A stretch of DNA of 64,000 nucleotides, taken from positions 1-64,000 of the forward strand of contig JAPEUD010000021.1 of NCBI GenBank assembly GCA_026026165.1, in the 5' to 3' direction. A program made the position numbers and the translations under genes. The notes beneath the pieces were generated by a model, which made no database searches, was not told the DNA's origin, and was given only the letters and a program-made list of their open reading frames with translations. Below, piece by piece: positions 22,371 to 42,444 of the stretch (position 1 is the first letter of the stretch; each line of letters begins with the position of its first letter). This stretch comes from Sarea resinae. Its lineage: Eukaryota.

Positions 22371-23631
22371 TCATTTCCCCTTCTTTTCGTCCTTGAATTG
22401 ATCCTCTGACTGGTCCTGAAGATTGAAAATGAGATCGCCCTTTAGTTTACCGACTACCGCCATGGGTTTGTTTCGATGCAAGCGTTCTGCTTCCGGGACC
22501 TCAAGCACTTCGTCAATGAGCTCTTGGGCCACGATAGTAGCAATTGAACCTGCTCCGTCCGAATTTCCAAGGATAACGGCACCAAACTTGAAGCCAGGTA
22601 GGAAGAAGTGGTAGCTTTCAAATCCAGGTACCGCGCCATCGTGCCCGACAACCATATGCCCCCGATAATAATACACCTCCAGTCCAGCGGCGTATGCTAT
22701 CGGGGACGAGTACGGTTTCAATCTTCTGGCATTAGGATTCTGAAAGGCCCGCATCCGGATAAGGCCATGGTAGACTCTTTCATTGACGGGGATTTCGCGG
22801 TTCATCAAAGCCTTGACCCATATAATGTAGTCATTCACGCTCGTGATGATCGAGCCGGCGCCTTGAGCCTCCGGACAATCTGGGCTGTGGAATCCACGGT
22901 ATGTTGAGCTAATCTTGTCCCACGTGTAATCCGTCGCAATACGGTCTCCAAAACCCTTAGCTTGAGCGCTCGCAGGCCGAAGACTGGTCGACTGCATACC
23001 CAGCGGCCGAAAAAAGCGCTCGTGCAGGAAATCAGAAAAACTTTGCTGGCTTTTCACCTCTACCAGGTGCGTCGCCACAGTGAACATCATATTGCAATAC
23101 ATATATTTGGCGCGGATAGGTGCAGCCACGGGCAGGTTTCGCAGGTTCCTCGTGACCGATCGTGCATCGTCTGGATGCGCCGCTCGCACGCTCAAATAGG
23201 AACTGTCATGGCTGCATTGTACAGTCAGTGATAATCAACAGTCGAATGAGTGGGTTTGGTTACCCAGGCATGCCGCTTCTGTGGCTCAGAACATCCTCCA
23301 CGGTAACACCCTCTGTGTATCCAACGCCAGGCATAACGAAATCATCGGGCAGCAGGCTGGACATGGTAGCAGTGTACTGCACCTCGGAGTAGTTCTCATT
23401 ATCGTCCACGAGCAATCCAACCGATGCAGCAGTCAGTGATTTCGAAGATGATGCAATGTCAAAGAGTGTATCTGCTGTACACGGTATTGGCGGTTCAAAA
23501 GATGCTTTTCCATAGCCTTGAGAAGCCACTTGGTCATTCTGTAAAATCGCAATAGCGAGACCCGGCACATGATGTTGATGCATCAGATCTTCTACATGGG
23601 CAGAGAACGCTGAAGAGTGGGAGAATTCCAT
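22371..23631 (-). CDS. Serine beta-lactamase / AmpC-like peptidase family protein, 2 exons
   Basis: HHVPGLAIAI, SxxK (IASSSKS), LSHRSGMP, YxN (YMYCN), HxG (GHDG). Intron at about 23262-23212 joins ..GMPG to HDSSYL in frame. The C-terminus may be short. Confidence 0.88.
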
Positions 23632-24828
23632 AGTTGAGCATGTAGGAACAAGTGAGAAGAATAGAAAAATCAAACGATGTAAATATGCTTCGTACTCAAC
23701 ATGTCTTGATATTTCAGAAAGTTCCTTCAGTCGAATTAATGTTAGATCATGAGTCACCCTGCATCGGCTAGGCAGACGCGTCTTTGCGCGGGCGACCGAT
23801 GGCCTTCGATGACTCTTCAGCCTTAGCTTTATTCCATGTAGCTGATCCCTCGTGCTCACGTCGGATTTCACTCGAGGATGCCTGATGCAGGTGAGCGACA
23901 CTGCTTGTATATGATTTGCTGTAAAATTCGCATCCAAACTGACACATCTGATGTTTTCACATACTAGCGAGGCGTTCGGCAGGAGCTTGATGTTATTGCT
24001 CTTCCCTCCAGTATTTTGCTCTCGCGTCATCCGACATGCTTGGTGTTAAGCATTAGGTGTCAGGACGTAGGATCCGCATATTAAAACGTGCCGATCGAGG
24101 CCTGAGGAGAGGCGAAATTGAGGATGACTGAGCGGCCGCGTCAAGACTGATCAAACGAAATCGGCACCCCGAAAAAAGGGGCGGATGAGGCTGATGATGG
24201 TGATAGGAAGAGCAGAACAGTAACAATCGCAAAAGGTCCGAGCAATACCACAAATCGATGGATGAGATAATATAGATGAGTTAGACGGAGTCCAAAGCGT
24301 GATGTGTCGAGACTAGTCCGGTAGGCTGGAATCGCGGTGCCCGTCAGAGACGTGATACAATGAAGTTCAGCGGGACAACTCGCAGCGCTCCTTGACGTCT
24401 GATTGAACCTCAGGGCCAGGAACTTACTATAAACAGGTCATCTGTCGATTAAGAAGAGTTAGATAATCAGATCACAGCCATCAATGTGGTGAGCAAGAGC
24501 AAAAGCGTAGGCGTTGAAACGAGGACAGTCCAGCGAGAAACGCAATTTGAAGAGCTCAACATCAATTCGTGCAAGACTGAGGAATATCATCCCACGTGGC
24601 TCATTTCATCCAGTCTTGGTGAATGGCGTAATTGCAGTAGCCGAAGAACGCGTCGTACTTTGAAAGTTGTCTCCTCCCTTCTGGTCCTTCTCATCGCGTC
24701 AGCTCACCATCCTCATTCCAGTTCTACTATTCCACAACTTCAATCACAGCCACCAGATCACGCCCATCAGAGAGCCATCCACGTTGTGTCAATCTCTGTC
24801 ATCACTCATACTATTTCTCCCTTTTCTT

Positions 24829-24982
24829 TGTGGGGCCCTCGTGGCATCCGCAGTTTTGTTTCTCGCCCTCATCCCCTCATCTCATCTTCTTTGTGGAGCC
24901 CTCGTGGCATCCGCAGTTTCGTTTCTCTTTCCATCACCTCACCTTCCCCTTTCTTTTGTGAGGCTCTTGAGCTTCGCAGTTG
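24829..24982 (+). repeat. Array of 3 stem-loop repeats upstream of the 25025 ORF
   Basis: TGTGGGGCCCTCGTGGCATCCGCAGTTTTG (24829), TGTGGAGCCCTCGTGGCATCCGCAGTTTCG (24892), TGTGAGGCTCTTGAGCTTCGCAGTTG (24957); spacing 63-65 nt with pyrimidine-rich spacers. Confidence 0.9.
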
Positions 24983-25024
24983 TGGACTTTTCACTATCCT
25001 CCCACCCGATCTTTACAGCACAAG

Positions 25025-25588
25025 ATGCCATCCCAGGGTGATACGCCAGAGTCGTACGCGGCACGACTAAGGGCGATGCTCCAATTCCGTGAAGCAACAC
25101 TGGCACTGCCGGGATCCACGGCAGATCTTCCGCTACCAATGCGAATTACAGCACTTGAGGCGGATGTTGCAATGCTACAAGCAATTGTTCTTGCTTTGCA
25201 GGGACAGGTTCGTGTGCTAACCGATGCGGCGCAAGAAGCAGCTCCCCGCATGCAACATTCGGGAGAAGTCCGTGCTCAACGGCCATTATCACCGTCACCA
25301 CCACCACCGCCGTACCGAGCTGATCCTCCGTCGGCCCCAACGACAGTGCCTGCTCCGATAGTGACGGCTTCTGCCCCAAGTCAATCAGCACTACCGCAGC
25401 CACCGCCACCACCAACCCGAGCAAACGCCTCACCCACGCTCGCGACAATACGTGCTCCGCCAATAACAGCCTCCGCTACTGGCCCTAATATGTCGCCGAG
25501 GTCGAATGAAAATGGAGCGAGGAGGCCTGGGGGCAGCGTTGGGCGCAGCGGGAGCACACTGCCAGAGAGACCTCGTTGGAGATTTTAA
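25025..25588 (+). CDS. Hypothetical protein: short coiled coil followed by a Pro-rich tail
   Basis: ATG at 25025 in good context (CAAGATG); heptad-like RITALEADVAMLQAIVLALQGQVRVL; lies about 40 nt after the hairpin array. Confidence 0.55.
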   Translation: MPSQGDTPESYAARLRAMLQFREATLALPGSTADLPLPMRITALEADVAMLQAIVLALQGQVRVLTDAAQEAAPRMQHSGEVRAQRPLSPSPPPPPYRADPPSAPTTVPAPIVTASAPSQSALPQPPPPPTRANASPTLATIRAPPITASATGPNMSPRSNENGARRPGGSVGRSGSTLPERPRWRF

Positions 25589-26031
25589 GCCGAAGGCCTT
25601 CTTGCCTCCAGACCAGGTATGAGTATCCGAGCCTATAGATTTACCTAATCAGGCTAATTTGCAGACGCTTGCGATGACGTCTAAGATGATGGCGGCTACA
25701 TCCAAAAGACCCCAAGCCTGATCATATTGAATCCAACGTCCAGGCGCGCCAGCAACAGCCAGCCCCAATGGCCAAGGAGACGGACTCAGCCCCTCCGATT
25801 GCTGCATTTCGAATACAAGGCACTCAGACGTGTTTTCCAGTGGCCATCTCACGAAAGCAGGATTTCAAAACTCTGAGGATCTCCACGTTGTGTGACAGAG
25901 CAAAGCTGTTCAGCAGCTGCAGTCCTGGCTGTTCAGGCATCCCAAGGAGAACTAGTCAAGAGCTGAGGCCTGCTTGATCAACTAAGATGCTTTCCTCGCC
26001 GGCACTGTACCGAGGCTGCAGATAACGGTCA

Positions 26032-26490
26032 TCAGTATATTCGATGCCTTGGAGAACAACAACCATTCCGTCGATCGAAGATAACAAGAAATATGGGTGA
26101 TGGGTCTATTTTCGTCGAGTTGAACGGATGGTTGGCGACATGTATTTGGCGCTTTTTGAGTCCGCCCAGGCCAAGGAGGAAGGTGGAGAAGTCGAGAGCG
26201 GAAAGAGCGAGGCTAAGCTGCTCAACAGCAGCGAAGTACCGAAGCACCTCTAGAAGTCAGTATGAATATGCCTACAGGATGTCTTACCTGCACCAGGCCA
26301 CGGTCCAACTTGTCGCACCCATTACCATCCCTCCTTTGGAGAACATTCCAAGATCCTTTCCAGTAGCTCCGTAAGCCACCCACCTTCCCGGAATTCTGTA
26401 GCGGTAGGCCAGTCTCTCGGATGAAGCGTCGTCATATTCAGCAATATTCAGCAAGAAGGCTCGCTTTCTTGTTGCTCGAAGTCATGTAGC
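26032..26490 (-). pseudogene. Spliced orphan gene remnant with a stop codon and a 10-bp duplication
   Basis: Reads ..LNMTTLHPRDWPTATEFREGGWLTELLERILECSPKEGW*WVRQVGPWPGA, then an intron (GTAAGA..CTGAC..TAG, about 26288-26251), then EVLRYFAAVEQL..; boundaries approximate. Confidence 0.45.
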
Positions 26491-27442
26491 CATGTCGGAT
26501 TAGGCAAGCTGGATGTATGAGCTTGGCTTTACCTACATCACGATCGTTGAGCCCCCCGAATCGTGTAGCATGATACGCGTTTGATTGCCTCATTCTAAGC
26601 TGCGTCGAGGCTCTGTATCCTAGCTGTTTAGTAGGGTGGTTGGATTAATAACCACAAGACTGAGAGGGTTGAAGAATAGAAGAAATGGATCGTTGTGAAT
26701 AGACGTAATATAAGCATAGCTGACAGTAAAAATTAAAGCACCATTGAGGATCCCTCCAGCCATAACCCAATTTCAAATGTATATACGTAGCATTAAGGCC
26801 GCAATGTAGGTCAATGTTTCAGACTCGCGCAACAGTCGAGAGGAGGTCAACGCTTTCGATCAGGCGCGTTGGTATAATGACAGCGAAGATGATCGCTATG
26901 AGATCGAGATCATGTGGATACTTACTAAATGATCACCTCTCAATGATCATCTACTTTGCCAGGTGTTTTGATCTGGTAGAGCGAATATCAGCAGCGCCAA
27001 ATTGAGGATCGACAATGCCAAATCAAAGAGCTCGAAGGCCATATGGAGGCGCCTGGGAGATAAAATACGCGCAAGATATTGAAATGCCGTTGATCGATCT
27101 CTCCCTTAGCAGCCAGGACTGTCGTTGGCTGACGGACAATCCTTTCCTTTCATAGCTGGCTGTCTTCGTCCATGTAGAATTGTATCACCCTAGAGCGCCT
27201 GTGATTGTAAGATACTACAAAGCTCTGAGCTTTTATTTGTCTGCAGTTTCTACAATGTAACCACAGGTTTACAATATATTTGCAATCACAACAATTAAAG
27301 GTGTGGTATAGTATAGCAATAAGAACTAGAGAGACCTACAATATAATATCGATAGAGAAAAAGAAAAACAACAGGCTTTAGAAGATCGTGAAATGATTCA
27401 AACAATGGCCGAGGACGTGGCATCTCTGATAGCCGAGCCGCA

Positions 27443-30058
27443 TCATTGTCGAAGCAGGCGAATTTGTTCAGCATTTGCTGCAGAGGCTGCCTCAACCATC
27501 CTGAACAAAGCATCCAGGAGGTCATCTAGACGAAGTACTTGGAGGTACTTTCTCAGTGCTGAGCCTTTTTCGACAACTACGGACTCGCCACTTCCCCATC
27601 GAACAAACACGCCAGTGGCATCGCCATCTATCGTGAAGTCGTTGGCGAAGTAGCTGACGACCCCCTCCTTCTCATCAAAAACGCCGACCGAGGTGTCGTC
27701 CCTGACCAGCGTGACATATCGGTTTTCTTCCGGAACATCGACCAAGCGGAAAAGCCAGTGATTGGTCGTCCCTCCTTGGACTTCACTTTGGCCGTGCAAG
27801 TTCCAGATAATCGAGGGGAGAGACAACTTGAGCGATTCTGATTGGGCGTGGTCGGTCGCATACCCCAGTATTTGATATGCCCCCATCCCTAAAAGGTCGT
27901 CGGGAGTCTCGTCGATTGGCAGACTCAGATCTGGGCACATCAGATGCAATCGGGCCATTAGGATTAATGCCATAGCCCGATCCAATCCGTGGCGAGCGGG
28001 GCTGACCAAAACCGGCTTCAGGAGCGCGCGGAGCATGACCACGGTCCAGGATTCGATGGCCTCCTTGTCCAGGATCTGCTGAATCCAAAGGAGCCTCTCC
28101 GTGGTCGCCATCTGGTTTCTTCTCAGAAGAGCAAAGAGAAAGTGCACTGTTGGCTGGGGGGTCGCTGTTGCCGTTGGCGTGCCGGGGTATTTGTCTGCGA
28201 ACCGAACCAGTTCATGACCGCGTGTAACGGCCATGTCCTCCGTCCACTCCGTCTCTTCAATGCCGAGGTGACGAATGACTTGAGCAATCTCAGCCATTGA
28301 CAGGGACTTCCCCAAGCATTGCGAGTCCGCCAGCATCATCATAACCGACTCTCCGGTTTGTCTCTCTTGAAGTCGTCGGCTGAGATCTGCAGCTTCGGCA
28401 GTGGTTCTGTCCCGAACGGTCTGCATCTCCAGCCTGAGCGCCGAGATCGTCTTATCCTTGTCTGCCAGGCTTTCTTGCAGATTCTCAAGCGTTGATGGGT
28501 CGGCCGCATTGCTAGCCTGGAGAAAAAGCAACTCCATCTTGAGGGCTGAGATTATTATGTCTTTGTCTGCCAGAACGCCTTGCATATCCTTCAGCGTCGC
28601 ATCGTTGGCCGCGTTCTCGTCCCTGGATGCGATCAAGGTCTCACAGAGCAGTCGGACATGTTCATCCCGTTCCTGAAGAGTTGAGACGTTAGCCGCATTG
28701 TTGTCCCGCAATGTTTGCAGCTCCACGTTGAAGGCCGAGGATGCCTCCTCCTTGGCTGCCAGAGTGCTTTGCAGTTCCTCGATTGTTGTAGCCTTGTCAG
28801 AAGCGGCGTTCTGGAGATCTTCAATCTTACGCTGGAGCGCCTCGAAGGAATCTTTCAGCCTTTGAGTCTCCACAGCTTTGGAATTGTCTGCAGCTTGGCG
28901 CTGATTATTTGACTGCTCAATGGAATTTTCCAAAGCCTGGACCGTCCGCTCCAGCTCTGTCATTATCTGGCCACGCTTCTCGATCGTCAGCCGCAGTCGC
29001 TCGGCCGCATCCTCCAATTTGTGAATGGTTGCATCCTTTCCGACTATCGTGTCCTCCAATCTGCGTTTTGATATTTGCAGTTCGTCGAGGGTGGTTTGCT
29101 CGGCGGTGCGAGCGACATTGTAGTTGTCTCGGAAGCGCCTCATGTCTTCCAGGGACTCTTGGTACTTCTGCTCGACATCGTTTTTGGACCGTCGAGCAGC
29201 CTCTGCATCACCAGCCAATTCCGTGACCGTCGTCTGCAGATCGCTGATCTGGTCATCCCTTTCGGCTACATTCGCCTCTGCGCTGGCCAGATCGGCTTGG
29301 GCAATCTCGAGATCTGCTTCTAGATTCGCTTGTATTGTCATGCCATCCGCAAGCTCTTTTTGAAATTCACGCTCTTGGTGCCGAATAGCTGCTGCAGTCT
29401 GATATGCAGCCTCATCCGTTGCTGCCTTGATTGCTTGACATAGCTGGGCAATGGTCCATTCATCTCCGGGACCGATGATGTGAGTCAGCGCCTCAGAAAC
29501 CTCCGGATCAGTCGGTCTCCATAGCGTTCCTTCGGTCACTAGTGCTTGCTCTGGTGCCGATCCCGCGTCGAATTGTTCGAAGGCTCTGACCTTTCCCGGA
29601 TCCAGGAGTGATTCTGGTACGTGATATACCTCCGTGAGAATACGGGCGGCCCAAGCCACTGCATATTGGCGCCTAGGCAAGGTAATATCATCGTCTATTC
29701 CGGGCATCTCTTCTACTAGCAATCTGTCTAGCCCTTTCTCCGCGTCCGCCAGTTTTTCCTCTTCGATCATCGTCACATCCACATAACCATCTTTAGCCTT
29801 GAGCTCCTTTATCCTTTCGACCATTGCGGCATGAATGTGGCGAACTCGGGCTAGATCTCTGCTTAATGCTGGCTCTGAATAATCTGCGTCGGATGTATTA
29901 GACTTTCCCAACTCCTCATCTCGGCCGAGGAATCTGTGTAGTTGCTCTAACGCTTCCGTTTGAAGGTCAACTGAGGCTAAAGACCTGCCGATTCTAGGCA
30001 ACCGAATTACTCTGCGCCCGGCTCCGGCACGAGGGTTTGGTGGGACTCGAGAAGCCAT
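27443..30058 (-). CDS. Intronless orphan protein of about 871 aa with a long central coiled coil
   Basis: Uninterrupted ORF; likely ATG at 30058 (MASRVPPNP), 57 nt downstream of a leader hairpin; E/L/A/Q-rich heptads across the middle; globular-looking ends. Confidence 0.8.
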   Translation of the reverse strand: MASRVPPNPRAGAGRRVIRLPRIGRSLASVDLQTEALEQLHRFLGRDEELGKSNTSDADYSEPALSRDLARVRHIHAAMVERIKELKAKDGYVDVTMIEEEKLADAEKGLDRLLVEEMPGIDDDITLPRRQYAVAWAARILTEVYHVPESLLDPGKVRAFEQFDAGSAPEQALVTEGTLWRPTDPEVSEALTHIIGPGDEWTIAQLCQAIKAATDEAAYQTAAAIRHQEREFQKELADGMTIQANLEADLEIAQADLASAEANVAERDDQISDLQTTVTELAGDAEAARRSKNDVEQKYQESLEDMRRFRDNYNVARTAEQTTLDELQISKRRLEDTIVGKDATIHKLEDAAERLRLTIEKRGQIMTELERTVQALENSIEQSNNQRQAADNSKAVETQRLKDSFEALQRKIEDLQNAASDKATTIEELQSTLAAKEEASSAFNVELQTLRDNNAANVSTLQERDEHVRLLCETLIASRDENAANDATLKDMQGVLADKDIIISALKMELLFLQASNAADPSTLENLQESLADKDKTISALRLEMQTVRDRTTAEAADLSRRLQERQTGESVMMMLADSQCLGKSLSMAEIAQVIRHLGIEETEWTEDMAVTRGHELVRFADKYPGTPTATATPQPTVHFLFALLRRNQMATTERLLWIQQILDKEAIESWTVVMLRALLKPVLVSPARHGLDRAMALILMARLHLMCPDLSLPIDETPDDLLGMGAYQILGYATDHAQSESLKLSLPSIIWNLHGQSEVQGGTTNHWLFRLVDVPEENRYVTLVRDDTSVGVFDEKEGVVSYFANDFTIDGDATGVFVRWGSGESVVVEKGSALRKYLQVLRLDDLLDALFRMVEAASAANAEQIRLLRQ

Positions 30059-30114
30059 TGTGTGCGGAGTGAGTCGTGATAGGATCCAAAGAACGAGAGA
30101 TGGTATAGGAACGA

Positions 30115-30142
30115 CGAAACTGCGAAGCCCAAAGGCCTCACA
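30115..30142 (-). repeat. Single stem-loop repeat upstream of the coiled-coil gene
   Basis: Minus strand TGTGAGGCC-TTTG-GGCTTCGCA-GTTTCG; 9-bp stem with G-U pairs. Confidence 0.9.
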
Positions 30143-30597
30143 AGTAACGACGAGAAATTGATGGTCTGAGCTGTAACGTGACATCCAGCGCAGAGGAGAG
30201 CAGTTCTTCTGATACGCCAGTAGCTTATGGATCGGTGGAAAGTCGCAGCGGTATGTATTCGGGAAGATGGATGGAGTCAAGTAAAGCGTCGCGGAGGATA
30301 GATGGAGGATTGATGAAGTCAGGTAAAGTGTCGCAGGATGTATGGATTCGGATGCACTGCCGCCGCGAAGCGAGAGGTGAATCAAAGAAGAGTAATGGCA
30401 CAGACTTTGCTTGATGGTGTGTGCCTTTGCTAATTATTGAATACGAGTTGTGCCATGAGCACCATCTTCTCTCACCATCTTCTCTCAACACCACCACTCA
30501 ACACCATCATACCATCATCAGCATACCCCCACCCACGGTGATTACGTCTACTTCGTGTCAGTCTTTGGTGATATATTGCTCCTCTTCCCATCGTCCT

Positions 30598-30625
30598 TGT
30601 GGGGCCTTTGGGCTTCGCAGTTTCG
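30598..30625 (+). repeat. Single stem-loop repeat upstream of the GIY-YIG-like gene
   Basis: TGTGGGGCC-TTTG-GGCTTCGCA-GTTTCG, 58 nt before ATG 30683; one difference from the inverted copy at 30115-30142. Confidence 0.9.
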
Positions 30626-30682
30626 ATTCCCTCAATCATTATTCATTACCATCTCATCCTCAATATCACACACCCCACTACA

Positions 30683-32287
30683 ATGGATTCGCCGCAAATA
30701 GGATCCTCCCCTCCCGAACGGTCTCCTCGGTCTCCTCAACTTCCCTCGACTCAAAGTCTCGTATCACCTCACCAAGAAGCTCCTCGTGGACAACCTTCTG
30801 AGATGAGACTCACTTCGCCTCGCTTCTCAAGTGTTTCCCTCGTTGAAGAGACACCTCCTCCACCTGTAATAGTCGACTATGTGGCAGATTTCCCGGATTA
30901 TCCATTTGACCCTTTGCAGAAGGAATTCATGGAACAGCTCGAGCTTAGTGGGGATGGCGATTTGCTTAAAAGCATCAAGAAGCAAGGTAATGGATGTACC
31001 TTTCCAGCAGATGACAACAATGACTGACTGGTTTCGATTTTCAAGACATGATCGATCCTTTTAGCAGCCAAACAAACATCTTTCTCCGGGCCGAAAGATA
31101 TGCTAAGGTCTATGGATGTCAGGTCCTCTTTTCCCTGCCGAAGGAAGTCAAGACTGGGTTAATCAAGGGGGATCTTTTGACGCGACAGCCGCCGATCCAG
31201 TTGACAGGCCAGGCTCGACTGAGGGATGTGGAGCTCGCCAAGAAGGCGTGGCCTGTGATATACGGACATTTTCACGTACATCGCAAGACAAAGCAGGCTC
31301 CAACGGCCAACCAGTACTTCAGGGTCATCGGTGATATCGAAAATTACATTCAGCATTTCATGGGGGTTCGGGTTACCAACCATGCTCACGATCTGAATGC
31401 GCACAGGATCGACGCAGTCATCCAGACCGGAAAACCCTGTGGTTTTCGAGATGGAGACTCATTGACGGGCAAGCGGCGATATTGTCAGAGTGATGCATAC
31501 CGCGCACACATTGAGACATGGCTGGCAGGATTACGTTGCCGGCTTAGACTTATTCCCATAGCGCATCACGACAAGCCAATCCCATGGCCTTTGTGCGGAG
31601 TTGGGTACACTTCTGACCCGGCCACCACAGAACAGCAACATCGCGAGCATACGAGTTCTCAGCAACTCATGTACCTGGTCCGCTCGGCATTTGATCGCCG
31701 CTGGCCAGACAACTTCGAGATGGAGTTCATGGTCCTGTACGAATGCTGGAATTCCGAGCAAGCTCCAATTGCTGAGCATGTCATATCACGACTTTGCTTC
31801 TCATACGTCCCACATGGCGGATTCAATGTGACATTAGGTGGGGTAGGCAACATATCAGCTCAGGATGAGCCTGAGACTATCTATGAGCCGATTTGGGAAG
31901 ACGTCCTCGAACGTGGTCACTTTACAGAGAATCTTGAGTTCGCGAACGATTGCGTTGAGAGGAAATTAGACTTGGTCAGACAGATCAAGCAAATCAAGGC
32001 GGAAGTGGCCGAATTCGAGGTGCTCAAAGTTGAGCATCTGGCCAAGAGGAAAAGGTTAGCAAGGCTCCAACACGAAAATGCGGTCCGAGGTAAGCTTGCA
32101 AACCATCTATGTGATGATAGGACTAATTGGAAAAGGTGCTGAAATAGAGAGACTCTCTATCCCCTACCTTAAACGTGTTCTGGCAGACATCAAAAAAGCG
32201 AATGAGATACTAGCGGAGTCGGAAGTTTTGGCAGCTTTTGCGGCAGATGTCAATGAATTGGCCGAGCTTGGCAGGAGACCGCAGTAG
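30683..32287 (+). CDS. Hypothetical protein of about 500 aa with a GIY-YIG-like nuclease domain and C-terminal coiled coil, 3 exons
   Basis: Introns 30987-31045 and 32090-32135 (GT..CTRAY..AG) join three ORFs in frame. Motifs VGYTSDPATTEQQH, AxxAExxI and GGFNVTLGG resemble the GIY-YIG pattern (YxG..R..QH..E..GxN). The gene model is better supported than the domain call. Confidence 0.65.
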
Positions 32288-32969
32288 ATTGGCGGAAGTT
32301 CCCTTACGCGTATTCTTCCAGAGTGTCAGAAGTTCCAGCTAGCTTTAAATATCATGCGTTGTCCTGTCGCGTTCACAAAGTTGAATCCATCATGATCTAC
32401 GTCCACGTCAGATTAAGCTCGCGCCGCTACATCGGCCTCGGCTAGCTGCATTGACCGAAATTCCGTGTGGCAAGATCTGTGCGCATCGCTTGGATAAGCG
32501 ATGATAGAGGGTTTACGGCGTCCCTAATCAGATAACGATGATCATGTTCTCTCTTCCCGTGAGCAAATCGCATTCCACATCATCTGTCGTCTGACGCCAT
32601 CATGTCTTTTGACCTTACCGGTGTCTTGGCGTACCTAATATTGCTCGCGCCAATTATTGTGGATGATATTGGTGAGCACCAAAATCTGCTTCTCAATTCC
32701 ATTGCCATGTAAATACAAGAAAAATCGCATCAATGTAAGGTACAGTAAATAGGCAAGCATGTTCCTAGTTGCGCTCAAAAGGCTACCATAACCTGGCTCG
32801 TCCGGTCCATACCCAGTTGCCTACTATAAAGCGCAGCGCTCCTCGCATTCGAAGAGAAAGTGAGTGAGGACTTGACCGCCAGGGAATAAACCATTTCAAA
32901 TTCAATACCAGAAAATACACTAGATCCTAAGCCCCCTCAGCCTGGACACCAAATTTCAAGCTGTTCTGC

Positions 32970-34560
32970 TCATGTCGCTGTGATATTGAAGCGTACATGT
33001 ACCTTAGTCTGTCGTTGGATCTCATCTGGGGTGGGACTCTTAGTTCGGACGATGTGCTCCTTGATAAAATACACACACTGGCGCCCGGTTACGGCAAAGG
33101 CATGGCACTTGTTGGTCATATTCGGCCAGTAAAAGTTGCCTCCGTGCGTGATTGCCTGCACCCACCAGCATTTGGTTTGGTGGTTCTGATTGACCACGAG
33201 ACTGGTGTTTCGCGCGGCAAGGCCTTTCCTTTTGATGGTGTTCTTGATCTTATTGTGAAGGATCGAGGCGTCCAGGAGCTCGTACCCGTCGTCGACCTTT
33301 CCTACGTTGATGTCGAGGAAATTGTTTGGCCGAGCGTTGATCACGAATGCAGCAGGGCGAGGATCGCGCTCTTGCTCTGGGGACAGAGCAGGCGAAACTC
33401 GAGACCTTGCTGGGATTCTTTGCGTAGCTGTCCCTGTGGCCGCCAAGCCCGATCTCCTTCCTCGCAAGGAAGTTCTGGTCCTGCTCGCGATCGTTGGTTC
33501 GAGAAAGCCCCGAGCGCCTCCACGGCTGCGATCGCTGGTTGGAGCCACATTCTCACCAGTCCTGGAGCGTTCCCCTTCCTCGGGCCTCGAGCCGTTGTCT
33601 GCCGTCGTAGAAGCGCTCTTTGCCGACAGCGAACGATACCTACCCGAGCTGTCCCGAGGTTTGACCTCTTTGCCCTTGCTTCGGGCTCGGCGTCCGTCCG
33701 CAAATGTCAGAATAGTTTTGAGCATAGTGACCCACCTTCGTCTGAGCTGACATTGTACAGATCTACTTCTGGCGAATCGGCCTTGTCATGTTGGGGGAGA
33801 ACATCAGGCGTCGCGTCCATCGCTGCCGGAAGCTCACTTACAGCTGTGCTCGCACGGTGGCGGTTTTTCTCCGGGCTTATACTCGGAACGTGACCACGAG
33901 CACCTGCCGTTGGCGAGACTACTCTTTGACCCTCCGTGGCAGCCTGGCCGGCATCGTGAAGAGAAAGCACCTTTTGCCATCTGGCGTTCCTTTCGTCGGC
34001 TCTCTTTTCTCCCCTTTCTTCTTCCAACCTGCCCGCTTCCAAGAGCCGCTCGATGTTGACGTCAAATTGGACGGCAAATTGGCTGACCAGTGATCTAGGG
34101 TCGTAAGAGTTTACGAGGCGTTGAAAAATCAAGCCCTCCTCGTCTTCCCTGAGGGCCTTGCAGGTCTGCGTAAATAATTGATCACGCTCGGTATGCCAGA
34201 GGGAATCAATGTATAGGAGGACAAGCTGCTTGAACACCTCCACGACCTTCTTAACCAATGCCTCTCGATCTTTACCGGCCAGATTACCCAATTCAGTGTA
34301 GATACTAGTCTAGATCTTGTCAAGTGCTGTCACGATATCTGCCGGAAGGTTCTCGTTGAGATATTGAAAGAGCGTGTCCGAGAGGATCTTCTTGATCATC
34401 GTTTCGTGCACTTCCTTTAGCAGGTCGAGTTCTTTGCTCCTCTTCTCGACCTCAATCTTCCAACCATTGCTAGTACGTGCTAGAACTTCCGCATGGCTTA
34501 CCTTGTCATCAGCTGCGGCTTTCGTGAGTTGAGCGATTGCCCGCTCATGCTGAGTTTGGA
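32970..34560 (-). pseudogene. Orphan gene (helical/coiled N-terminus, low-complexity middle, Cys-containing C-terminus) with a RIP-type stop
   Basis: ..QHERAIAQLTKAAADDK, intron GTAAGC at about 34500, IEVEKRSKELDLL..ALDKI*TSIYTELGNLAGK (TAG at about 34310, CAG>TAG type). A probable intron at about 33735-33686 links it to the 32970..33725 frame. The 5' end is lost in AT-rich sequence. Confidence 0.55.
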
Positions 34561-34842
34561 AACCCTACAGCCAAGAATAAGGATACCTTCTATTGGCCCT
34601 GCAATATACCCTAGTAAAAATTAATCTAAAATATTAATTGTCTGATAAGGACAGTTAGGATACACTTCCTCTAGCTCTTGTAGCAGAGGATTGCGTATTG
34701 TAGTTAGAGCCGGCCTTTTATGTCTGCATGAATAAGTTATTAGAGGCTGTCATTAGCGCTTGAGGCCAATCAGTAGATGTATGTCGGGCTAATGTAGCAG
34801 GATGCTTAGCCTAGATGCAGGAATTCACAGGCATGGCTTGTT

Positions 34843-35160
34843 CTAATGCTTATTTCGTATGGCCTCTTTCAGCGGCACGAAGGATGCGAATTCTAAATCG
34901 GCTGGTAGCGACGTCAGCCCGGCGAAGTCGAAAGCAGCAGTCGCCGGGGTCTTCCTTGTCGTGGAATTCCAGTCATTGGTAACCCTCTTGCCCATAGTTG
35001 GCTCATAGCCCGCGGCAATGAAGATCATTTGAGCCATCTAAGTGAGTACAATTTTCTGGCGGGAAAGATAGAGGGAATTCAGGGTTCCATCTGTATAGAC
35101 CAAGCTGAATACAATGAACTTAGCTTCTGAGCCTTCGAAATTGTCGCTGGTCTCAACCTG
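34843..35160 (-). pseudogene. C-terminal fragment of an SF1 helicase paralog (copy C)
   Basis: QVETSDNFEGSEAKFIVFSLV (motif V) and FIAAGYEPTMGKRVTN align with QVETREKFQGSEAQV and FITVSHEPTMSKRVPN of copy B. Confidence 0.7.
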
Positions 35161-35825
35161 TGAACGAGCCATTCACCCAGTATCGCAGTGAATGTGGAGG
35201 TATCGATGACGTGCTAAGTCCAGAATAGTCGGAGACCAGTTTGATGGCGTTCGCATAGATGCAGTAAACCCTCGTCTTCAGGATGGGAAGATGCCTAGAC
35301 CTTCGCGCAAGCCAGATCCACAATGCTTTTTGCTTTTAGGCCTTGCAATTCCTCACGCGATTGTCTGCGTAGTCTATCCGCAGAAAGTATAGGGAAATCG
35401 TTCGACTGTATAACAACTTTAAGTATAGTGTCTACCGCCTAGTTCTCTACTGCCTGCAAGTTAGTACAGTCGTAGTCAGATAACACTTGCCTAATAGCTT
35501 TGTGTCGCCCGCCCTTGATTTTATTTAAGGTCACCCCGAAATGTATGTACGCTTCTAACAACTTAGCTTTTATTAATTCTCTTATCTAAGGATTAGGGCC
35601 TGAAATAGTCCTGCTATCTGGTCGAAAAATCGTCTGCTATTATATCTCCTGTTAGTCACGTCTTTCGTATAACAGGAGAGCAACTTACTTTGCCAGAAAG
35701 ATTTGACATAATATGGCGAAGCAATCAACTGTAGAGTGAAGTGAAGGGCTTGATTCTCTTATGACACTATCTCCTCGCGCCCTTATCATCGAAGCACGCA
35801 ATGGTCAGCACAGAGTCCGGATCAC

Positions 35826-38800
35826 CTAGGCCCCAGCAATCCTGAGGGTCCCTTGCACCCTCACGGCGTTTGCCCCGAGAAGCTTCAGGACATCGGCCAT
35901 AGGGCAGGGTTTGTTGGGTACCCTCTTGCTCATGGTCGGCTCGTGGCTGACGGTGATGAACACTTCCCGTGCCCTTGATGTGGCGACATTGATGCGGCGG
36001 GGGTGGTGGAGGAAACCTAGGGTGTCATCGGCACGGACGAAGCTGAATACAGGACTTGAGCTTCGGAGCCTTGGAACTTTTCTCTGGTCTCAACCTGCGA
36101 CGTCCAGCCATGCTCGGCCCGTATCGTCCTCAACAGGTCGACCTGATCCCGGTACGGGGTCAGGTCGACCACCTCGGCCGGCGCAATGCCCATCTTCATC
36201 AGTCCCTGCACTATAGTTGACACTACTAGTGCTTCTCGTCGAATGGAGACTATAGTGTTGATGGCATGCTGACCCTCGTGCACGTTGAAGACGTACTTGG
36301 TCGAGTTGAGGCTGAAGGCCCGGCCGGAGTCGTCGAAGAAGTTGACCGTGAGAGCGATCTCGCAGAACCGAGCGCTGAAGGGCCGGTCGACGCTCGTTGG
36401 GAAGGGGATGATGCGACCATCGTAGAACCGGACGCTGGTATGCGTGGCCAGCTCCTTATGCGCCTGGTACTGGATCCTTACCAGGGCGTAAGGCCAGCCC
36501 GAGTCGATCATCCGCTCTATCGGGGTCACATCCCATGCGCGGCTGCCCTCACCGATGATCATGACCGGACCATTCTGCTTGTAGTCGCCCGTGAAGTATG
36601 CGGCCCGGAGAGAAGGCTGCGACAGGATTGGCAGCAGACTGTCTGGGTCCTTTGCCGAAACGACCTCGTCAACGATGAGATAGTCCGCCTTGAACTTCCT
36701 CAGGAGCTTCAGGCCCAAGTTCGTACAGGTGCCGAACAAGACCTGAGTGCCCTCCAGCACCATTTCGTCGAGGGTGACCGACTGCCCTATCTGTTATCTC
36801 TATCAAAGTTTAAGTCTCTCTTTCTGATTATTTTCTACGCCCTGTCCCTGCAGTGTAGCCTCGCACTAGTTTCATAAGATTATTCGCTGTTATTAATGTT
36901 CCCAACCAGAATTAGTATTAGGAAAGATGTATTGCACAACAACCACAGAATAATTGACTTTTATAATCTTCTTGTCCTTTCCCTTTTGTAGAGTAGTAGT
37001 GTCTAACTCTTCTTAGTTTATTTTTTAGTTCTTAGAGTATTATATTAGAAGTAGTTACAACAGGCATTTTAAATGAAACTACTTACATCCTAGGCTTTTA
37101 GAAGAAAGTCTACGCTCTTTAGCTTCTCTCTTTCCTCTCTTATAGAGATTTTGTTAATAATATTATAGACATGTATAACAGCCTCTAGCTTATAGCTGTA
37201 TCTCTGTAGAAATTGTATTATAGCCTAGTTACGTTCACTAAGCAAGAGTGATTTTTCCGAAACGCTTTTATTAAACATACCTTTTGTAGAGCATAACCCT
37301 TGTAGGAGTCTGCTATTTTGGAAGGAAGTTAGGTAGTGCAGTGGTCTAAGAGTTAAGTGCCCGCTCGCTCCCGTCTTGGGTCGAGACAAGTCCGTCAGTC
37401 TCTCGATCCCGGACAGATATGGAGCCCATTGGACGGGGCTGAGATAAGCGATCCTCAGCCTCAGCGCATCCAGATCGGACGGGGTGCTCGACATGTTTAC
37501 CTGAAGCCCACGAGCCACACGTCGCCGTATGATCTGGCTCTAATAGTGGACGCGAAACGCCTTGAATGGCACATTGTACCGCCTCAAGCAGGTGGCACAC
37601 TTATGCTTGGCAATTTCTATGGCTGCAACATACCTATTGCTAAATTTAATATCACATCTTTTGTAGCTTCCTCCTTATTAGCTTCTTGATTCAATCATCT
37701 ATAGGTAGGACTCTAGTATAAGCTATAGTCAGACTTGTCTTCTGTATTTCAAGATATCTTGCGGTCGAGTCTAATCAGGATTAGCTAGGCAAAGGACACT
37801 ATTTACGTTAACGATTCCATGACCTTTACTTAAGTCGTCTGTTGCAAAATTATAAGGCTAGGGTAGATCCTGTAGGCAGCTTCTTTTTCTGCCTTTGCTA
37901 GTCGTCGACAACTTTCTCGCCGCGTCGGCGTGTCGATCGGCAGTAGGGTCGGCGAAGTCGACGGTGACATGGATCCCCTCTTGCACAAGGCCGTCGTATT
38001 TCTGCACGTCGACTCTATCTTCGACGATGCCGACGACTGATCCAGAGAAGGGCAACTCCGACTCGACCCGAACGCCAAGAACATCTTCGCCATCGTCGGC
38101 ATCGGGCTCAGGGTTCGTGAGCCGGATTCGCTGGCCGGAACTGATATCCCAGGCCCCCGTAGCTGCTTGCACCGGTTCGATCTGCGCCACGATGAACCCA
38201 CGATACGCGTGGTAGCGGACGGTGCAGCACTCACGCTCTTGACCGTTCAGCCTCTCTTTTGCGGCCTTTGACTCTGCAGAGATCGCGTCGAGATTCATCT
38301 TAATGTACTCTCGGAGGTGTCGTTAGCTCATGAACTTTTTATCCGACACCTCTAGGAGAGGGTCCGCGGCGATGTACTTGTCTGCGAGTCGAATACGCAA
38401 GCCGTCATACTCCCGAATTTTCTTGCATGCGGGAATGTGTTCGGGTCGGAGCAAGCGAAGGCAATCTGGTCGGCCTGGTGGGAAACCTGGTCCGTATTGC
38501 GGGATCTTGCCGCCGTGTACGCATTGGGCTTGACGCTGAACGTGAACTCGGTCATGTTGTCAACGGTCCGGTGCTCGTACTCGATCTTCTCCCACTTGAA
38601 CACGACGCCGTATTTGACCGAGCTGGATTCGCCCTTTGGACTCACGCGCGATTGCCATATCGAGAGCTCTGGGTGAAGGGTCATCCTAGCATTGAAACCT
38701 GTTGGCGTTTCTTCAGGCAACTCCCCATCTCTTTTCCGAAGCATGAACCATAGTCGATCTTCGTCGCGGGCGTCGTTCGCCTCAGTAGAAAAGAGTACCC

Positions 38801-38846
38801 AAATGGGCAAAGCCTTCAACTTCTGGAGTTTCAGTGGTAGCACCAT
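35826..38846 (-). pseudogene. Upf1/DNA2/Nam7-like superfamily 1 helicase gene (copy B), fragmented
   Basis: Motifs LIVDE (II), GDYKQ (III), IQYQAH and FYDG (IV), LTPYRDQ, KFQGSE (V) and, after a frameshift near 36050, RRINVATSRAR (VI). N-terminus MVLPLKLQKLKALPI at 38846. Walker A was not found; AT-rich tracts interrupt the gene at about 36790-37340 and 37600-37890. Confidence 0.8.
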
Positions 38847-38875
38847 GACGAAAGCGTTGGAGGGTCGGGAGAATG

Positions 38876-39159
38876 GAAATTGCGAGCGTTACTCAGAGAC
38901 ATGGCCACAAACAGCTAACCAGGGAGGAGAAACACTGACATGAAACTGCGAGAGTCACGAGGACTTCATAGACAAAGGAACAAGAGAAAAAGAGGAACAC
39001 ACACAACACTTCGGGAGTACGATCACACGAAACTGCGAAAGCCGAAAAGTTTTACAATCAAGAGAGAGAAAAAGAAGGTAGACACAGTGAAGTACGCTGA
39101 TCTCAGAGATGAACAACAGAGAAGAGATCGAAACTGCGGAAGCCGAAAGACCCTACACA
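38876..39159 (-). repeat. Array of 4 partly degenerate stem-loop repeats upstream of helicase copy B
   Basis: Plus-strand units GAAA(C/T)TGCG...CACA/CATA/TACA at 38876-38909, 38941-38970, 39028-39056 and 39129-39159. Confidence 0.8.
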
Positions 39160-39540
39160 GACGACGACGAAGTAAGATAGGTCAAGGGAGAGACAAGCCA
39201 GATATCTGCGCGCCCGGGGTCCCATGACGCATTCTACACGAAAACAGCACATATCATCGCACCTCTAGCGTGACCGCACCCACGAGATGTTGCTTGTCAT
39301 TACGCTCCTGTGTTCCGACACCACATTTTCAACTGCCCGACGTATTCTTTCCCACCTAGCTACTAAAGGCATGATATGTAGCAGCTTGTCAATTTGTCTG
39401 GCCTTCAGCTGTCAATGCCGGTACTGATCCAGTGTCGCTCGGCACTCCTGCAAGCTTAGTTGATGTGGGTCGAGGGCGATCTTTAGTTAGACCGTTAGTG
39501 AATGACTTTTCGTTCCCTATAATGCTTGCTTCTGCTACAA

Positions 39541-39843
39541 TCAGTATAGAAAACCAAATTGGTAGCTGGCAAAGCTCAAGGTCGGTTTGACTCTCGCGGC
39601 TTTTGCTTTGAGCAGCTGCATGACGTCGGCCATAGGGCAGGCCTTGTTAGGAACCCTCTTGTTCATGGTTGCGCGTGAATAGTAAGCTATCGGCGCGGAA
39701 AATGTTGAACACGATACTTCCCATCTTGTTTCAAGCGTGTACCATGTCCGATCGTCGTTGGCGACATCGTCCGTACCCGTAGAGAAGACGATTGTGATGG
39801 GCAAGTTCTTCAGCTTCTGAAAATTCAGTGGTGGGACCGACAT
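39541..39843 (-). CDS. 100-aa internally deleted mini paralog of the helicase gene (copy A)
   Basis: N-terminus PLNFQKLKNLPITIVFST..DDRTW matches copy B PLKLQKLKALPIWVLFST..EDRLW; C-terminus TMNKRVPNKACPMADVMQLL matches copy B TMSKRVPNKPCPMADVLKLL. Confidence 0.7.
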   Translation of the reverse strand: MSVPPLNFQKLKNLPITIVFSTGTDDVANDDRTWYTLETRWEVSCSTFSAPIAYYSRATMNKRVPNKACPMADVMQLLKAKAARVKPTLSFASYQFGFLY

Positions 39844-39866
39844 CGCGAAGGTATTGAAAGGGGTAT

Positions 39867-40198
39867 CGAATTGCTGCTGCGAGCGTCACCAAGAGCCTCA
39901 CAAAGCAATAATCGAGGATATAAACACTTACACGAAACTGCGAAGCCCAAAGGCCCCACAGACGAACGGGGTTTAATAAACGCACACGAAACTGCAAAGC
40001 TTAAAGACCCCACAAACAAACTGGAGGGTGATGACACACACGAAACTGCGAAGCCTAAAGGCCTCACAGGTAACGAGAAACTGATGGTCTAGAAACTTGC
40101 GTAGAGTAAATGAGAACTGCGAAAGTCACTAGAACCTCACACCAAACAATTGTGAAGGTGAAATACACGAAACTGCGAAAGTGACTGATGACCTCACA
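39867..40198 (-). repeat. Array of 6 stem-loop repeats with unique spacers upstream of helicase copy A
   Basis: Plus-strand CGAAACTGC...CC(T/C)CACA units at 39867 (degenerate), 39933, 39987, 40041, 40113 and 40168; period 54-55 nt for most units. Confidence 0.92.
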
Positions 40199-42444
40199 AA
40201 CAAACGAACCGGGAAGGTGAGGAAGAGAGTTTCTTGGAAGAGAGTTGATAGTGGAACGGTAAGAAAATCAGGTTTCTGTGACGAAGACTCGCGTACTTAT
40301 AGAGAGGCGACGTAATCACTCTCAAGAAGTAGGTGTGAAATTAGTGTGATTTTTAGGAGTGTTCTCTCTGCGAAACTCTTGCTCTGCTACTATACTCTAT
40401 CTTTTCGAAGAGTATAGTTTAGAAAAGAGCTTTCTCTATTGTTAAATTTGAATCTCTTGAAATTAGAACAGTAGTCGTATAAGTTTGTTAGGGTACTCTG
40501 CAGCAGTAAGATTATAACAAATATAGAAGTAATAAGCTCTAGGCTTGTTAAGACTATTTACTCAAGAATGGTAGTAAAGCAATTGTAGTGTATTTATGCT
40601 TCGTTCTTATAGAGGATTTCTTAGTCCTGCTTGAAATTGGTCGCTCGAGAAGGCAGCAAAGAGATTTGGTCGTGTCGTAAGACACGGCGACAGGCCGTAG
40701 ATAGTAGATAGTATATCGATCGTAATGTCGGAATCTTATATTTATACTGTGACCTGGCTCTATTACAGGCACTGTATTGCCAGCACTAAATCGTTCGCGA
40801 ATTCAGCACAGTCTGCAGAGCCAGCTAGGTAGTCTGTAGAATAGTGTGTTAGTATATTTCTATCGTGAGAGACCGGCCCCCTGGTTATAGCTGATGTCCG
40901 ACAGAAAGTGAACAGGTAAGTGAATGCTTATAGATAAAGTTTCTACTCGGCAGAGGTGAATGCCTGTGGGCGTAGAACTGCATTCACCGTGAAAGCCGAG
41001 TGGAAAAAAGATAAGGATGACATAGAGACAGCCGTTACAGCTGTTGCGAATCAATGAGCTCTTTCTGGCGCTTGAGCGACTTCTTCTCGAATATAAGCAA
41101 GACTCTAGCTTTAGCCTCTCGAGTCACCAAATCGTGCCAGAAAAGCACTGCAGAGAGGACGCGAGGGATCGAGCATCTTGCTAGATTCTCATAAGTCGTA
41201 GATAGCATCCTTCAACTTCTCAATCCAGGGCTCCCAAAACCCTCGAGGGCCTAGTGTCGCTGCTTAAGGTCAGCAGCTATGCATGCGAGAGAATGGCTGT
41301 ACTAACTGCATTATTCTACTCGAAGCATGCTCTAGCTTATTTGATGTGATCGTCGATGACAAGGGCTTACCAGTGGTTTATCAAGGAATGGTTGACAAGA
41401 GGTGGCTAACTGAGGAGGACGTTCCTTGCTTCGTTGATTCAAAGAGTCTGAATATAATTCATAAGAGGTTGCGTGAAAAAGAAAGAGAAAGCAGATTAAG
41501 CAGATTAAGCAGATATTTATATCTGCTGGTGTTCGGTTAGGCAACAGGCAATTCATTGTAGAACTAGTGGGGGAATCAACTTTCAGAAAGGGAAGTGACG
41601 GTGACTCGACTGGAAAAAGAAGCTTCACTGAGAAATAGCGTGTCAGAAGGGAGTGTGTATGATGTAGCATCTTAAAAGAGAACTTGTGTAATGCGTGGAA
41701 GGTAGATGAATGCCCCGACTTAGAGGATACAATGGCCATGTCAGCATTTCTGGCTCTGGACCGTGGCATGTTGCTCGGGTGAAGTAGCTCGTGGAGTTAT
41801 ATCGGGTTATATCCCAGCGAATTGTAATGCTCAAGGAATGTATTGCACCACTGGAACACATCGCGATACGTCAGCATTTGATATCTTCATCCAGCCAAGC
41901 TCTCCAAATTAGTCAGCAGTTGAGTTCAGGACGTGCCAGTATTACAACACGATCCCTTTCCGCCGCGTTTGCACTCGACAATCCGAGCACCGCTTCACTC
42001 ATAGGATCTACGAGCTTTGCGAGCATCCCCGACCTAAGGGGACCTTTCGTCATTGCAAAAAAGAACTAACCCAACGCAAAGATAATGTCGGTATCGGATC
42101 GATGACGAAGGGAGGGGCTTGTGAGGCATGTCTACACAAAGCAAACAAGCCAGCAAAGGAGCGAAAGTCGGAGATCTGTGTATGGCCGCTCTTTCAGCTT
42201 ATTAGAAGGCATTCTGATCATTCAAGACTGATGTGGAGGGCTCGTTGTTGGACATGCTGGCGGGGGTCTAGTCCCTCTGGTCAGTCTTCAGCGTATCGGA
42301 TACTCCATTGTCGTCGCTAGTCTTCTCATGGCATCCTTCAATAGCTATACCTTCGAATACAAGGATATTTCTAGCGAGTTACGTTAGTCTTCATCCCATT
42401 GACTGTAATATCTATCTGCTTACTTCTCCATGGCTAAATCAGAT

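Follow-up and report, generated by a model that had tools for sequence, protein, structure and literature searches.

A strand-specific stem-loop motif, a candidate RNA element, upstream of five neighbouring lineage-specific genes in Sarea resinae

A 64,000-nucleotide (nt) stretch of the Sarea resinae genome (positions 1 to 64,000 of contig JAPEUD010000021.1, assembly GCA_026026165.1; hereafter, the window) holds an island in which five neighbouring genes are each preceded by one or more copies of the same short motif (Table 1). We name the genes after the positions of their ATGs as g25025, g30058, g30683, g38846 and g39843; the first four of these ATGs (25025, 30058, 30683 and 38846) are the starts of public gene models. 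The motif has the consensus YTGTGRGGYC-loop-GGCTTCGCAG-TTTCG, and we describe here its copies, its folding and the selection on it, and weigh it as a candidate RNA element of the 5′ leader.

An original prediction, made from the letters alone, had placed about 15 copies in the island, all on the sense strand of the adjacent gene, with the nearest copy about 25–60 nt from each ATG and none elsewhere in the window. At the listed sites the sequence holds 15 copies, every one of them in the sense orientation relative to its gene, and the gap between the end of the nearest copy and the ATG measures 28–57 nt for the five genes. The typical copy spans 28 nt and comprises a 9-nt arm (TGTGRGGCC), a 4-nt loop, the second arm GGCTTCGCA and GTTTCG; about 4–5 of the 15, roughly one third, are degenerate. 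All arrays adjoin an ATG, and their distal copies lie 313–355 nt 5′ of it. The 625-base-pair (bp) divergent promoter between g30058 and g30683 contains two copies, each at its own gene's end and pointing to that gene, 56–57 nt from the ATG. The core YTYGCAGTTTCG, allowing up to one mismatch, has 10 matches against 1.39 expected, a number that none of 100 shuffles attained, and a long gapped pattern has six against 0.00 expected. A covariance model with a 9-bp stem, built from six short A-type copies and run over both strands of the window with filters off, returned 19 matches at E ≤ 10. The 11 matches with E < 0.01 are all listed copies in gene-sense orientation; three copies match weakly, those starting at 38970 (E 0.3), 40141 (E 3) and 38909 (E 7.9), and the degenerate copy at 39902 is missed at E ≤ 10. 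Outside the listed copies, the model found only five noise-level matches in the window (E 0.56–5.5, at 27232, 49089, 25186, 3996 and 47835), as the prediction of no further copies requires.

The stem is real and strand-specific, with 9–10 bp on the sense strand. The minimum free energy of the core averages −7.8 kcal/mol in gene sense versus −3.3 kcal/mol in antisense, which bears out the earlier claim that the motif folds well on one strand only. Well-preserved cores reach −10.4 to −13.6 kcal/mol in sense; five cores lie no lower than −4.2 kcal/mol, and that of the copy at 39159 is at just −4.9 kcal/mol. For whole arrays, folding z-scores against shuffles are −3.57 and −1.74 in sense versus −1.53 and +0.14 in antisense. 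The consensus stem from RNAalifold is 10 bp long, counting a Y-G closing pair. In an alignment of 12 paralogous copies fitted to the structure model, 97% of 101 pair cells hold standard pairs, versus 34–67% when the 3′ partners are slid by 1–3 columns. Wobble pairs recur at fixed places: stem pair 3 is U.G in all 12 copies, and pair 6 is G.U in nine and A-U in two of the 11 copies scored. The sole bulge is an A, present in two copies. Among copies that score well, the distance from the TGTG block to the GCAG block is 19 nt in the A-type and 20–22 nt in the others, and in the g25025 array the two long, bulged B-type copies match the A-type in folding. These three features (a variable block spacing, an apical stem that varies yet stays complementary, and bulged copies that fold well) favour a hairpin over a rigid site on double-stranded DNA.

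The motif is under selection, and this selection is confined to the motif, because the copies are alike to a degree that their flanks are not. Identity between copies ranges from 0.73 (all 15) to 0.86 (one representative per gene), while the 25-nt flanks on either side are at random level, with identities of 0.52–0.59 against 0.53 for shuffled CT-rich 25-mers. In the six-copy array, the spacers are at random level and the motif is retained; the loops (UUUG, UUUA, CUUG and CUCGU) are likewise unconserved, so that the free variation predicted for loops and spacers is what we observe. An identical 28-mer stands in different flanks at 30598–30625, in the g30683 promoter, and at 39933–39960, in the g39843 promoter. 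Pieces larger than the hairpin have been copied between promoters, because some copies share a further 20–25 nt of upstream flank (for example, about 20 nt at 30115–30142 and 40041–40068). The units of the arrays recur in tandem at 54–65 bp, with CT-rich tracts immediately 5′ of every copy. A CT-rich block resembling TCACCTTCCC lies 9–13 nt upstream of several copies and is common to arrays of different genes (24937–24959, 40200–40222 and 30579–30597); this block may belong to the unit as a second element, or may be a start-site tract.

Compensatory changes, a further part of the original prediction, are present and few. Three of the nine pairs change on both sides, in four cells across the 12 aligned copies, a count that 27 of 500 column shuffles also reach. 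These double changes put U-A in place of C-G at the top pair, G-C in place of A-U or G-U at pair 5, and A-U in place of G-C at pair 4. For covariation, the score is 0.241 versus 0.185, and 10 of 500 shuffles attain the observed value. Where only one side changes, pairing is kept through wobble in 10 cells, versus three cells left unpaired. When each 5′ half was joined to every foreign 3′ half, own arms gave −7.8 kcal/mol and foreign arms −6.9 kcal/mol (permutation p = 0.07).

The position of the copies relative to the ATGs bears on where the motif acts. Between the first copy and the ATG, three upstream ATGs (uATGs) are observed versus 8.1 expected (P = 0.017), and all three fall in the degenerate half of the g38846 array. 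On the sense strand at 39844–40543 (−), no ATG occurs in the 700 nt upstream of the ATG at 39843, against about 3 expected for the 355-nt stretch that begins with the first copy and ends at the ATG. Placement and uATG scarcity fit a leader or core-promoter element better than an upstream activating site. At g30058, an ATG at 30184 (−) lies 42 nt upstream of the motif copy, in frame with the gene and with no stop before 30058. Use of this ATG would place the motif of g30058 in coding sequence; the public model has its start at 30058. If that annotated start codon is right, the in-frame ATG at 30184 confines the start site of g30058 to a narrow interval.

Table 1 Genes of the island and copies of the motif. 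The sense start of a minus-strand copy is its higher coordinate; energies are those of the core in gene sense; gaps are counted between the nearest copy's last nucleotide and the ATG. aa, amino acids.
Feature	Position	Strand	ATG that follows (gap)	Energy (kcal/mol)	Covariance model	Remarks
g25025	25025–25588	+				187-aa protein, no family; same model in public protein set (P0005)
g30058	27443–30058	−				871-aa coiled-coil protein; self match only (P0002)
g30683	30683–32300, 3′ end approximate	+				499-aa hypothetical protein (P0001); intron 30995–31044; public gene model
g38846	37858–38846	−				306-aa protein (P0003), two exons, no family; public gene model
g39843	39541–39843	−				100-aa open reading frame, paralogue of g38846 N-terminus (31% identity)
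B-type copy (long), distal in array	24829–24858	+	25025	−10.4	28.8 bits, E 6.8e-06	5-nt loop, bulged A
B-type copy, middle of array	24892–24921	+	25025	−11.3	26.2 bits	
A-type copy (short)	24957–24984	+	25025 (40 nt)	−10.7	47.6 bits	Top pair U-A instead of C-G
A-type copy, single	30115–30142	−	30058 (56 nt)	−13.6	54.7 bits	
A-type copy, single	30598–30625	+	30683 (57 nt)	−12.6	51 bits	
Degenerate copy, proximal	38875–38909	−	38846 (28 nt)	−2.7	E 7.9	GCAA for GCAG; holds uATG
Degenerate copy	38941–38970	−	38846	−2.8	E 0.3	TATG start creating uATG; GUC/GAC apical stem
Copy with 5′ arm destroyed	39028–39056	−	38846	−0.6	20.5 bits	CGCAGTTTCG intact
Copy, distal in array	39129–39159	−	38846	−4.9	30 bits	Insertions in both arms (internal loop)
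Degenerate copy, proximal	39872–39902	−	39843 (28 nt)	−8.7	Absent from matches at E ≤ 10	Tail GCAGCA
A-type copy	39933–39960	−	39843	−12.6	55.1 bits	
A-type copy	39987–40014	−	39843	−4.2	49.3 bits	G-U and U-G for G-C and C-G; one C.A mismatch
A-type copy	40041–40068	−	39843	−12.7	55.4 bits	
Weak B-like copy	40112–40141	−	39843	−6.0	E 3	Tail GTTCTC
Copy, distal in array	40168–40198	−	39843	−3.6	31.4 bits	Long loop, weak stem

The motif had been described as common to otherwise unrelated genes, which is correct for most of the five; g38846 and g39843, the sole related pair among them, are paralogous. We consider g39843 probably a truncated or chimeric copy, because beside its paralogy to g38846 it carries a helicase-fragment-like piece, with residues 59–92 being 68% identical to the helicase-fragment region at 35835–35936. 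A word-indexed protein search returned only self matches for g25025, g30058, g30683 and g38846, and a full HMMER search with g38846 added one match only, a repeat protein aligned on a short low-complexity stretch. A Pfam scan of 19 + 53 + 5 open reading frames (ORFs) and proteins gave no family for these genes beyond a sub-threshold coiled-coil (best E 4.8e-05, under the curated cut-off), and a PDB sequence search with P0001 and P0003 gave 0 matches at E ≤ 1. ‘Orphan’ here means without sequence-detectable relatives and not of unique fold, because a language-model atlas lists similar Ascomycota hypothetical-protein clusters for the 499-aa P0001 (score 0.94, TM 0.65/0.75). For the same protein, faint feature-level leads point to GIY-YIG/T5orf172-type nucleases, at a score (0.77) under the useful bar.

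The DNA run that is the probable source of the sequence (X1) fully covers the region and also holds contigs at about 10× depth, versus about 350× for the main genome, that are 80–90% alike and patchy along 24000–41000 in the same order; these contigs come from a relative that has diverged, or else from a second haplotype, within the run. At the g25025 array, a diverged contig passes over 87 nt and has 20 letters of its own, which amount to an A-type loop and 3′ arm without the bulge, complementary to the adjoining 5′ arm if the aligned 5′ arm is unchanged, which is suggestive of pairing being kept at this site. Two unrelated runs of the same study gave three tiny pieces (X2) and nothing matching the region (X3).

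Directly upstream of the island lie large ORFs of a multi-module non-ribosomal peptide synthetase with A, T and C domains (9791–22254, +) and, beside them, a beta-lactamase-fold gene split over two ORFs (22371–24030, −); the covariance model scan gave no motif upstream of either. Inside the island, SF1 helicase fragments (AAA_11/AAA_12) occupy several frames of 34976–36793 (−), with a tandem duplication of about 937 bp, and a diverged second copy at full depth in X1 covers about 36844–37308. This helicase region looks like a decaying multi-copy gene. At 32732–32811, contig depth is about 3–8 times that of the surroundings and 5–7 different contigs end; this segment is a dispersed repeat. The right flank of the island holds a protein-kinase-domain ORF (42448–43305, −) and a SesA-domain ORF (45514–46233, +), SesA being the N-terminal domain of fungal NLR-type proteins. 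The SesA-domain ORF and the peptide synthetase are in keeping with Pezizomycotina.

On balance we lean, tentatively and with somewhat less than even confidence, towards a 5′-leader RNA stem-loop that would mark a small island-specific regulon and be read by an RNA-binding factor. On this view the five neighbouring lineage-specific genes would all be transcribed with the motif in their 5′ leaders, where it would act in cis. The mRNA would fold there into a stem-loop of 9–10 bp whose stem base (Y-UGUG / CGCA-G, including the invariant U.G wobble) and single-stranded 3′ tail, UUUCG(U), are conserved, with loop and apical stem varying freely. An RNA-binding factor specific for sequence and shape would recognize the stem base and the tail, and would set the translation or the stability of all these mRNAs jointly as a small post-transcriptional regulon. 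Such a regulon would work like that of the iron-responsive element (IRE) and the iron regulatory protein (IRP) without the motif being a member of that family. Tandem arrays of 3–6 units may let one mRNA be bound at several sites, or may supply multiple start sites each with its hairpin. What the sequence shows is the motif, the selection on it, its folding on one strand and its orientation and placement before the ATGs; we infer that it is transcribed and bound, and with what outcome. The motif stands as a candidate RNA element, and action as DNA is the chief alternative. A more specific version strikes us as rather unlikely in all its particulars: a 5′-leader hairpin label, its U.G wobble invariant and its tail UUUCG, in 1–6 tandem copies per mRNA, through which a dedicated RNA-binding factor would switch the whole island on or off as one, IRE-like but arisen de novo, spread among unrelated young genes as a leader module of about 30–50 nt and unlike catalogued RNA families.

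The main competing explanation places the activity in the DNA and is a sizeable possibility, although we would not expect it to prevail. According to this explanation, a unit of about 30 bp together with the CT-rich block would be a transcription-factor site or composite site, or a core-promoter or start-site module, that was duplicated in tandem and copied between co-regulated promoters, with the hairpin as a by-product of an imperfect palindrome. A number of observations weigh against a leader RNA, and many of them suit a DNA element. The covariation is only marginal, on a model-fitted alignment of just 12 paralogous copies, and foreign-arm swaps cost just 0.9 kcal/mol on average. The selection on RNA structure that the original prediction had proposed is thus upheld in part: the motif is selected and its stem is sense-only, but the covariation stays at the margin (10–27 of 500 shuffles; arm-swap p = 0.07). 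Homotypic tandem clusters, here arrays of 54–65-bp units, are typical of DNA binding sites, and sequence conservation extends over both arms as well as the unpaired tail. The best-conserved block, CGCAGTTTCG, lies partly outside the stem and is kept at 39028–39056 without a 5′ arm; its persistence without a partner points to sequence recognition, which is equally possible on DNA. The wobble positions are all transitions, and a DNA half-site with Y/R degeneracy would look alike. Whole promoter pieces were copied, with 20–25 nt of shared flank that includes the TCACCTTCCC-like block. The common orientation is weak evidence, because the five promoters are at most four independent cases (g38846 and g39843 being paralogues) and some copies share extended flanks; with about four promoters, concordance would arise by chance about once in eight. 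A span of 313–355 nt is long for a fungal leader, and distal copies lie that far out. CT-rich tracts mark start sites in filamentous fungi, and one stands directly before every copy. The Pfam scan found no DNA- or RNA-binding domain in the island, so that neither an RNA-binding gene nor a DNA-binding one is at hand there, and the latter lack counts against the DNA element. Also contrary to a DNA element, single copies lie 56–85 nt from the ATG, each aimed at its own gene within a divergent promoter, which is unusual for an upstream activating site, and the block spacing differs by 1–3 bp among well-conserved copies. Stem positions 3 (12 of 12) and 6 (11 of 11) are U.G, G.U or A-U, never a perfect DNA palindrome, and the apical pairs change on both sides with complementarity kept.

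Several specific recognition sites were considered and rejected. The consensus of a CreA-type site is SYGGRG, a pattern that the GTGAGG of half of the copies violates. A Zn2Cys6 (Gal4-type) site is a CGG/CCG triplet pair at fixed spacing; no CGG...CCG pair occurs in the motif consensus, whose tail offers just a direct repeat, TCG-N5-TCG. A loop-borne CTTTG site of the HMG or PRE-like type fails on the lack of loop conservation, and the Smaug/Vts1 recognition element, a CNGG(N) loop on a short stem, fails because no copy has a CNGG loop.

Two further explanations have less in their favour. We regard as improbable a selfish or neutral short repeat without a regulatory role, such as a palindrome of the miniature inverted-repeat transposable element (MITE) type, transposon subterminal repeats or a minisatellite. 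The island does have repeated and broken genes (the helicase fragments, the 937-bp tandem duplication and the high-depth repeat at 32732–32811), and, where genes form pairs, the copies at either end face inward like the ends of a transposon. Yet array spacers have gone to random level with the motif retained, coding and other intergenic DNA of the window has no copies, and every array adjoins an ATG in sense. Contig depth in X1 shows no large excess in the bins of the arrays, at 354–419 versus a baseline of about 346–356 and 1148 in the bin of the true repeat, although a 28-nt match may be too short to register in this measure. MITEs and transposon terminal repeats are dispersed in both orientations relative to genes and have terminal inverted repeats and target-site duplications. 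In the window, no element-like flanks are common to the copies beyond about 25 nt, and all copies are gene-sense and ATG-proximal; transposon ends bounding the gene pairs were rejected for want of shared terminal sequence beyond the motif units. Still less probable, in our estimate, is a splicing-related or introner-like origin, in which the 5′ arm would resemble a 5′ splice site (GTGAGG/GTGGGG) and the 3′ arm would end in YGCAG, forming leader introns or splice-site decoys whose use is controlled by the pairing of the arms. GT and AG are among the most invariant positions, degenerate copies having lost one of them (TATG, GCAA); several long copies have a branch-like GTGAC or GTAAC 8–10 nt before CAG; introns require the strict sense orientation that is seen; and a GTAAGT at 39929–39924, together with the GTGAC...CGCAG about 50 nt further on in the last copy (39877), could be an ordinary 53-nt leader intron. 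However, the unit from GT to AG is just 21–25 nt, and the known introns of filamentous ascomycetes are much longer. Moreover, position 6 of the 5′ site is G and not T, the A-type copies have no branch-like motif, and the public gene models, which carry no untranslated regions (UTRs), show no intron there.

Comparison with known systems places the candidate leader hairpin in context. The animal IRE is marked by a CAGUGN apical loop and, five pairs lower in the stem, an unpaired C. The likeness consists of a short 5′-leader stem-loop common to otherwise unrelated mRNAs and defining a regulon (proposed for the island motif), and of the proposed action, in which a protein bound near the 5′ end blocks translation. 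In contrast to the IRE, the island motif has neither the CAGUGN loop nor the C bulge and no Rfam IRE match; it occurs in tandem arrays of up to six units, which is no known feature of 5′-leader IREs, its host is a fungus, and we infer its transcription. The tandem-repeat promoter enhancers TR34/TR46 of cyp51A and the MITE-type mimp elements that mark effector promoters upstream of Fusarium SIX genes act, or serve as marks, at the DNA level and are not known to need a fixed orientation or one-strand stem. They share with the island motif the form of short repeated units in proximal promoters, in tandem or common to unrelated genes, whereas the island motif is strictly oriented, has a stem that relies on G-U pairs and ends 28–57 nt from the ATG. 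The likeness to bacterial intrinsic terminators is one of anatomy only, a 10-bp G+C-rich stem followed by a T-rich tail, and a simple scan flagged three copies; the locus, however, is eukaryotic and nuclear with spliceosomal introns, and the motif lies upstream of genes, including a divergent promoter without an upstream transcript to end. Among fungal 5′-UTR candidates from comparative genomics, the consulted passages of one survey describe the SDC motif, a hairpin upstream of S-adenosylmethionine (SAM) decarboxylase genes (PMC5640933). As presented in those passages, motifs of this type resemble ours in being conserved hairpins just upstream of the coding region in Pezizomycotina and proposed regulators of the adjoining gene (PMC5640933). 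They differ, on the same passages, in belonging to one orthologous gene in many species; the island motif, frequently in tandem, precedes 4–5 different lineage-specific genes within a single island and has so far been seen in one genome and one diverged contig. The passages describe no tandem or multi-gene hairpin motif, and the supplements of PMC5640933 and PMC8216456 may list others.

Within Rfam, the literature searched for motif strings and these passages of one fungal structured-RNA survey, no described family matches the motif. A cmscan of 24000–41000 against Rfam 15 (both strands, E ≤ 1) gave nothing at the motif copies, in agreement with the original prediction that no known fungal element matches; the sole match in that interval was the unrelated sR55, at 19.4 bits with a gathering score of 35. 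The full-text literature search for motif strings returned primers or unrelated sequence only, and the literature under the species name was, among what came up, taxonomy or ecology, with none on regulation. A metagenome scan with the pattern TGTGRRG-N5-12-TYCGCAGTTTCG found at least 118 loci, each with a single match; a second core lies nearby at just one of those listed (L027, two core matches). None among the listed loci has the GGCC...GGGC apical stem, and we read these matches as chance or unrelated, the scan being uninformative on fungal relatives. The kind of element is familiar, a short cis-regulatory module common to a gene set; what is unusual is the combination of lineage-specific genes of one island, tandem arrays and a wobble-dependent stem.

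How young lineage-specific genes in fungal accessory regions are regulated in a coordinated manner is poorly understood. A short portable module that stands before the ATGs of unrelated orphan genes and is retained by selection while its surroundings decay would offer a concrete, testable example of such regulation, whether it acts as RNA or in the promoter. As a promoter element it would be a more ordinary finding; if it acts as RNA, it would be among very few regulon-defining leader hairpins in fungi, and possibly a compact regulatory part.

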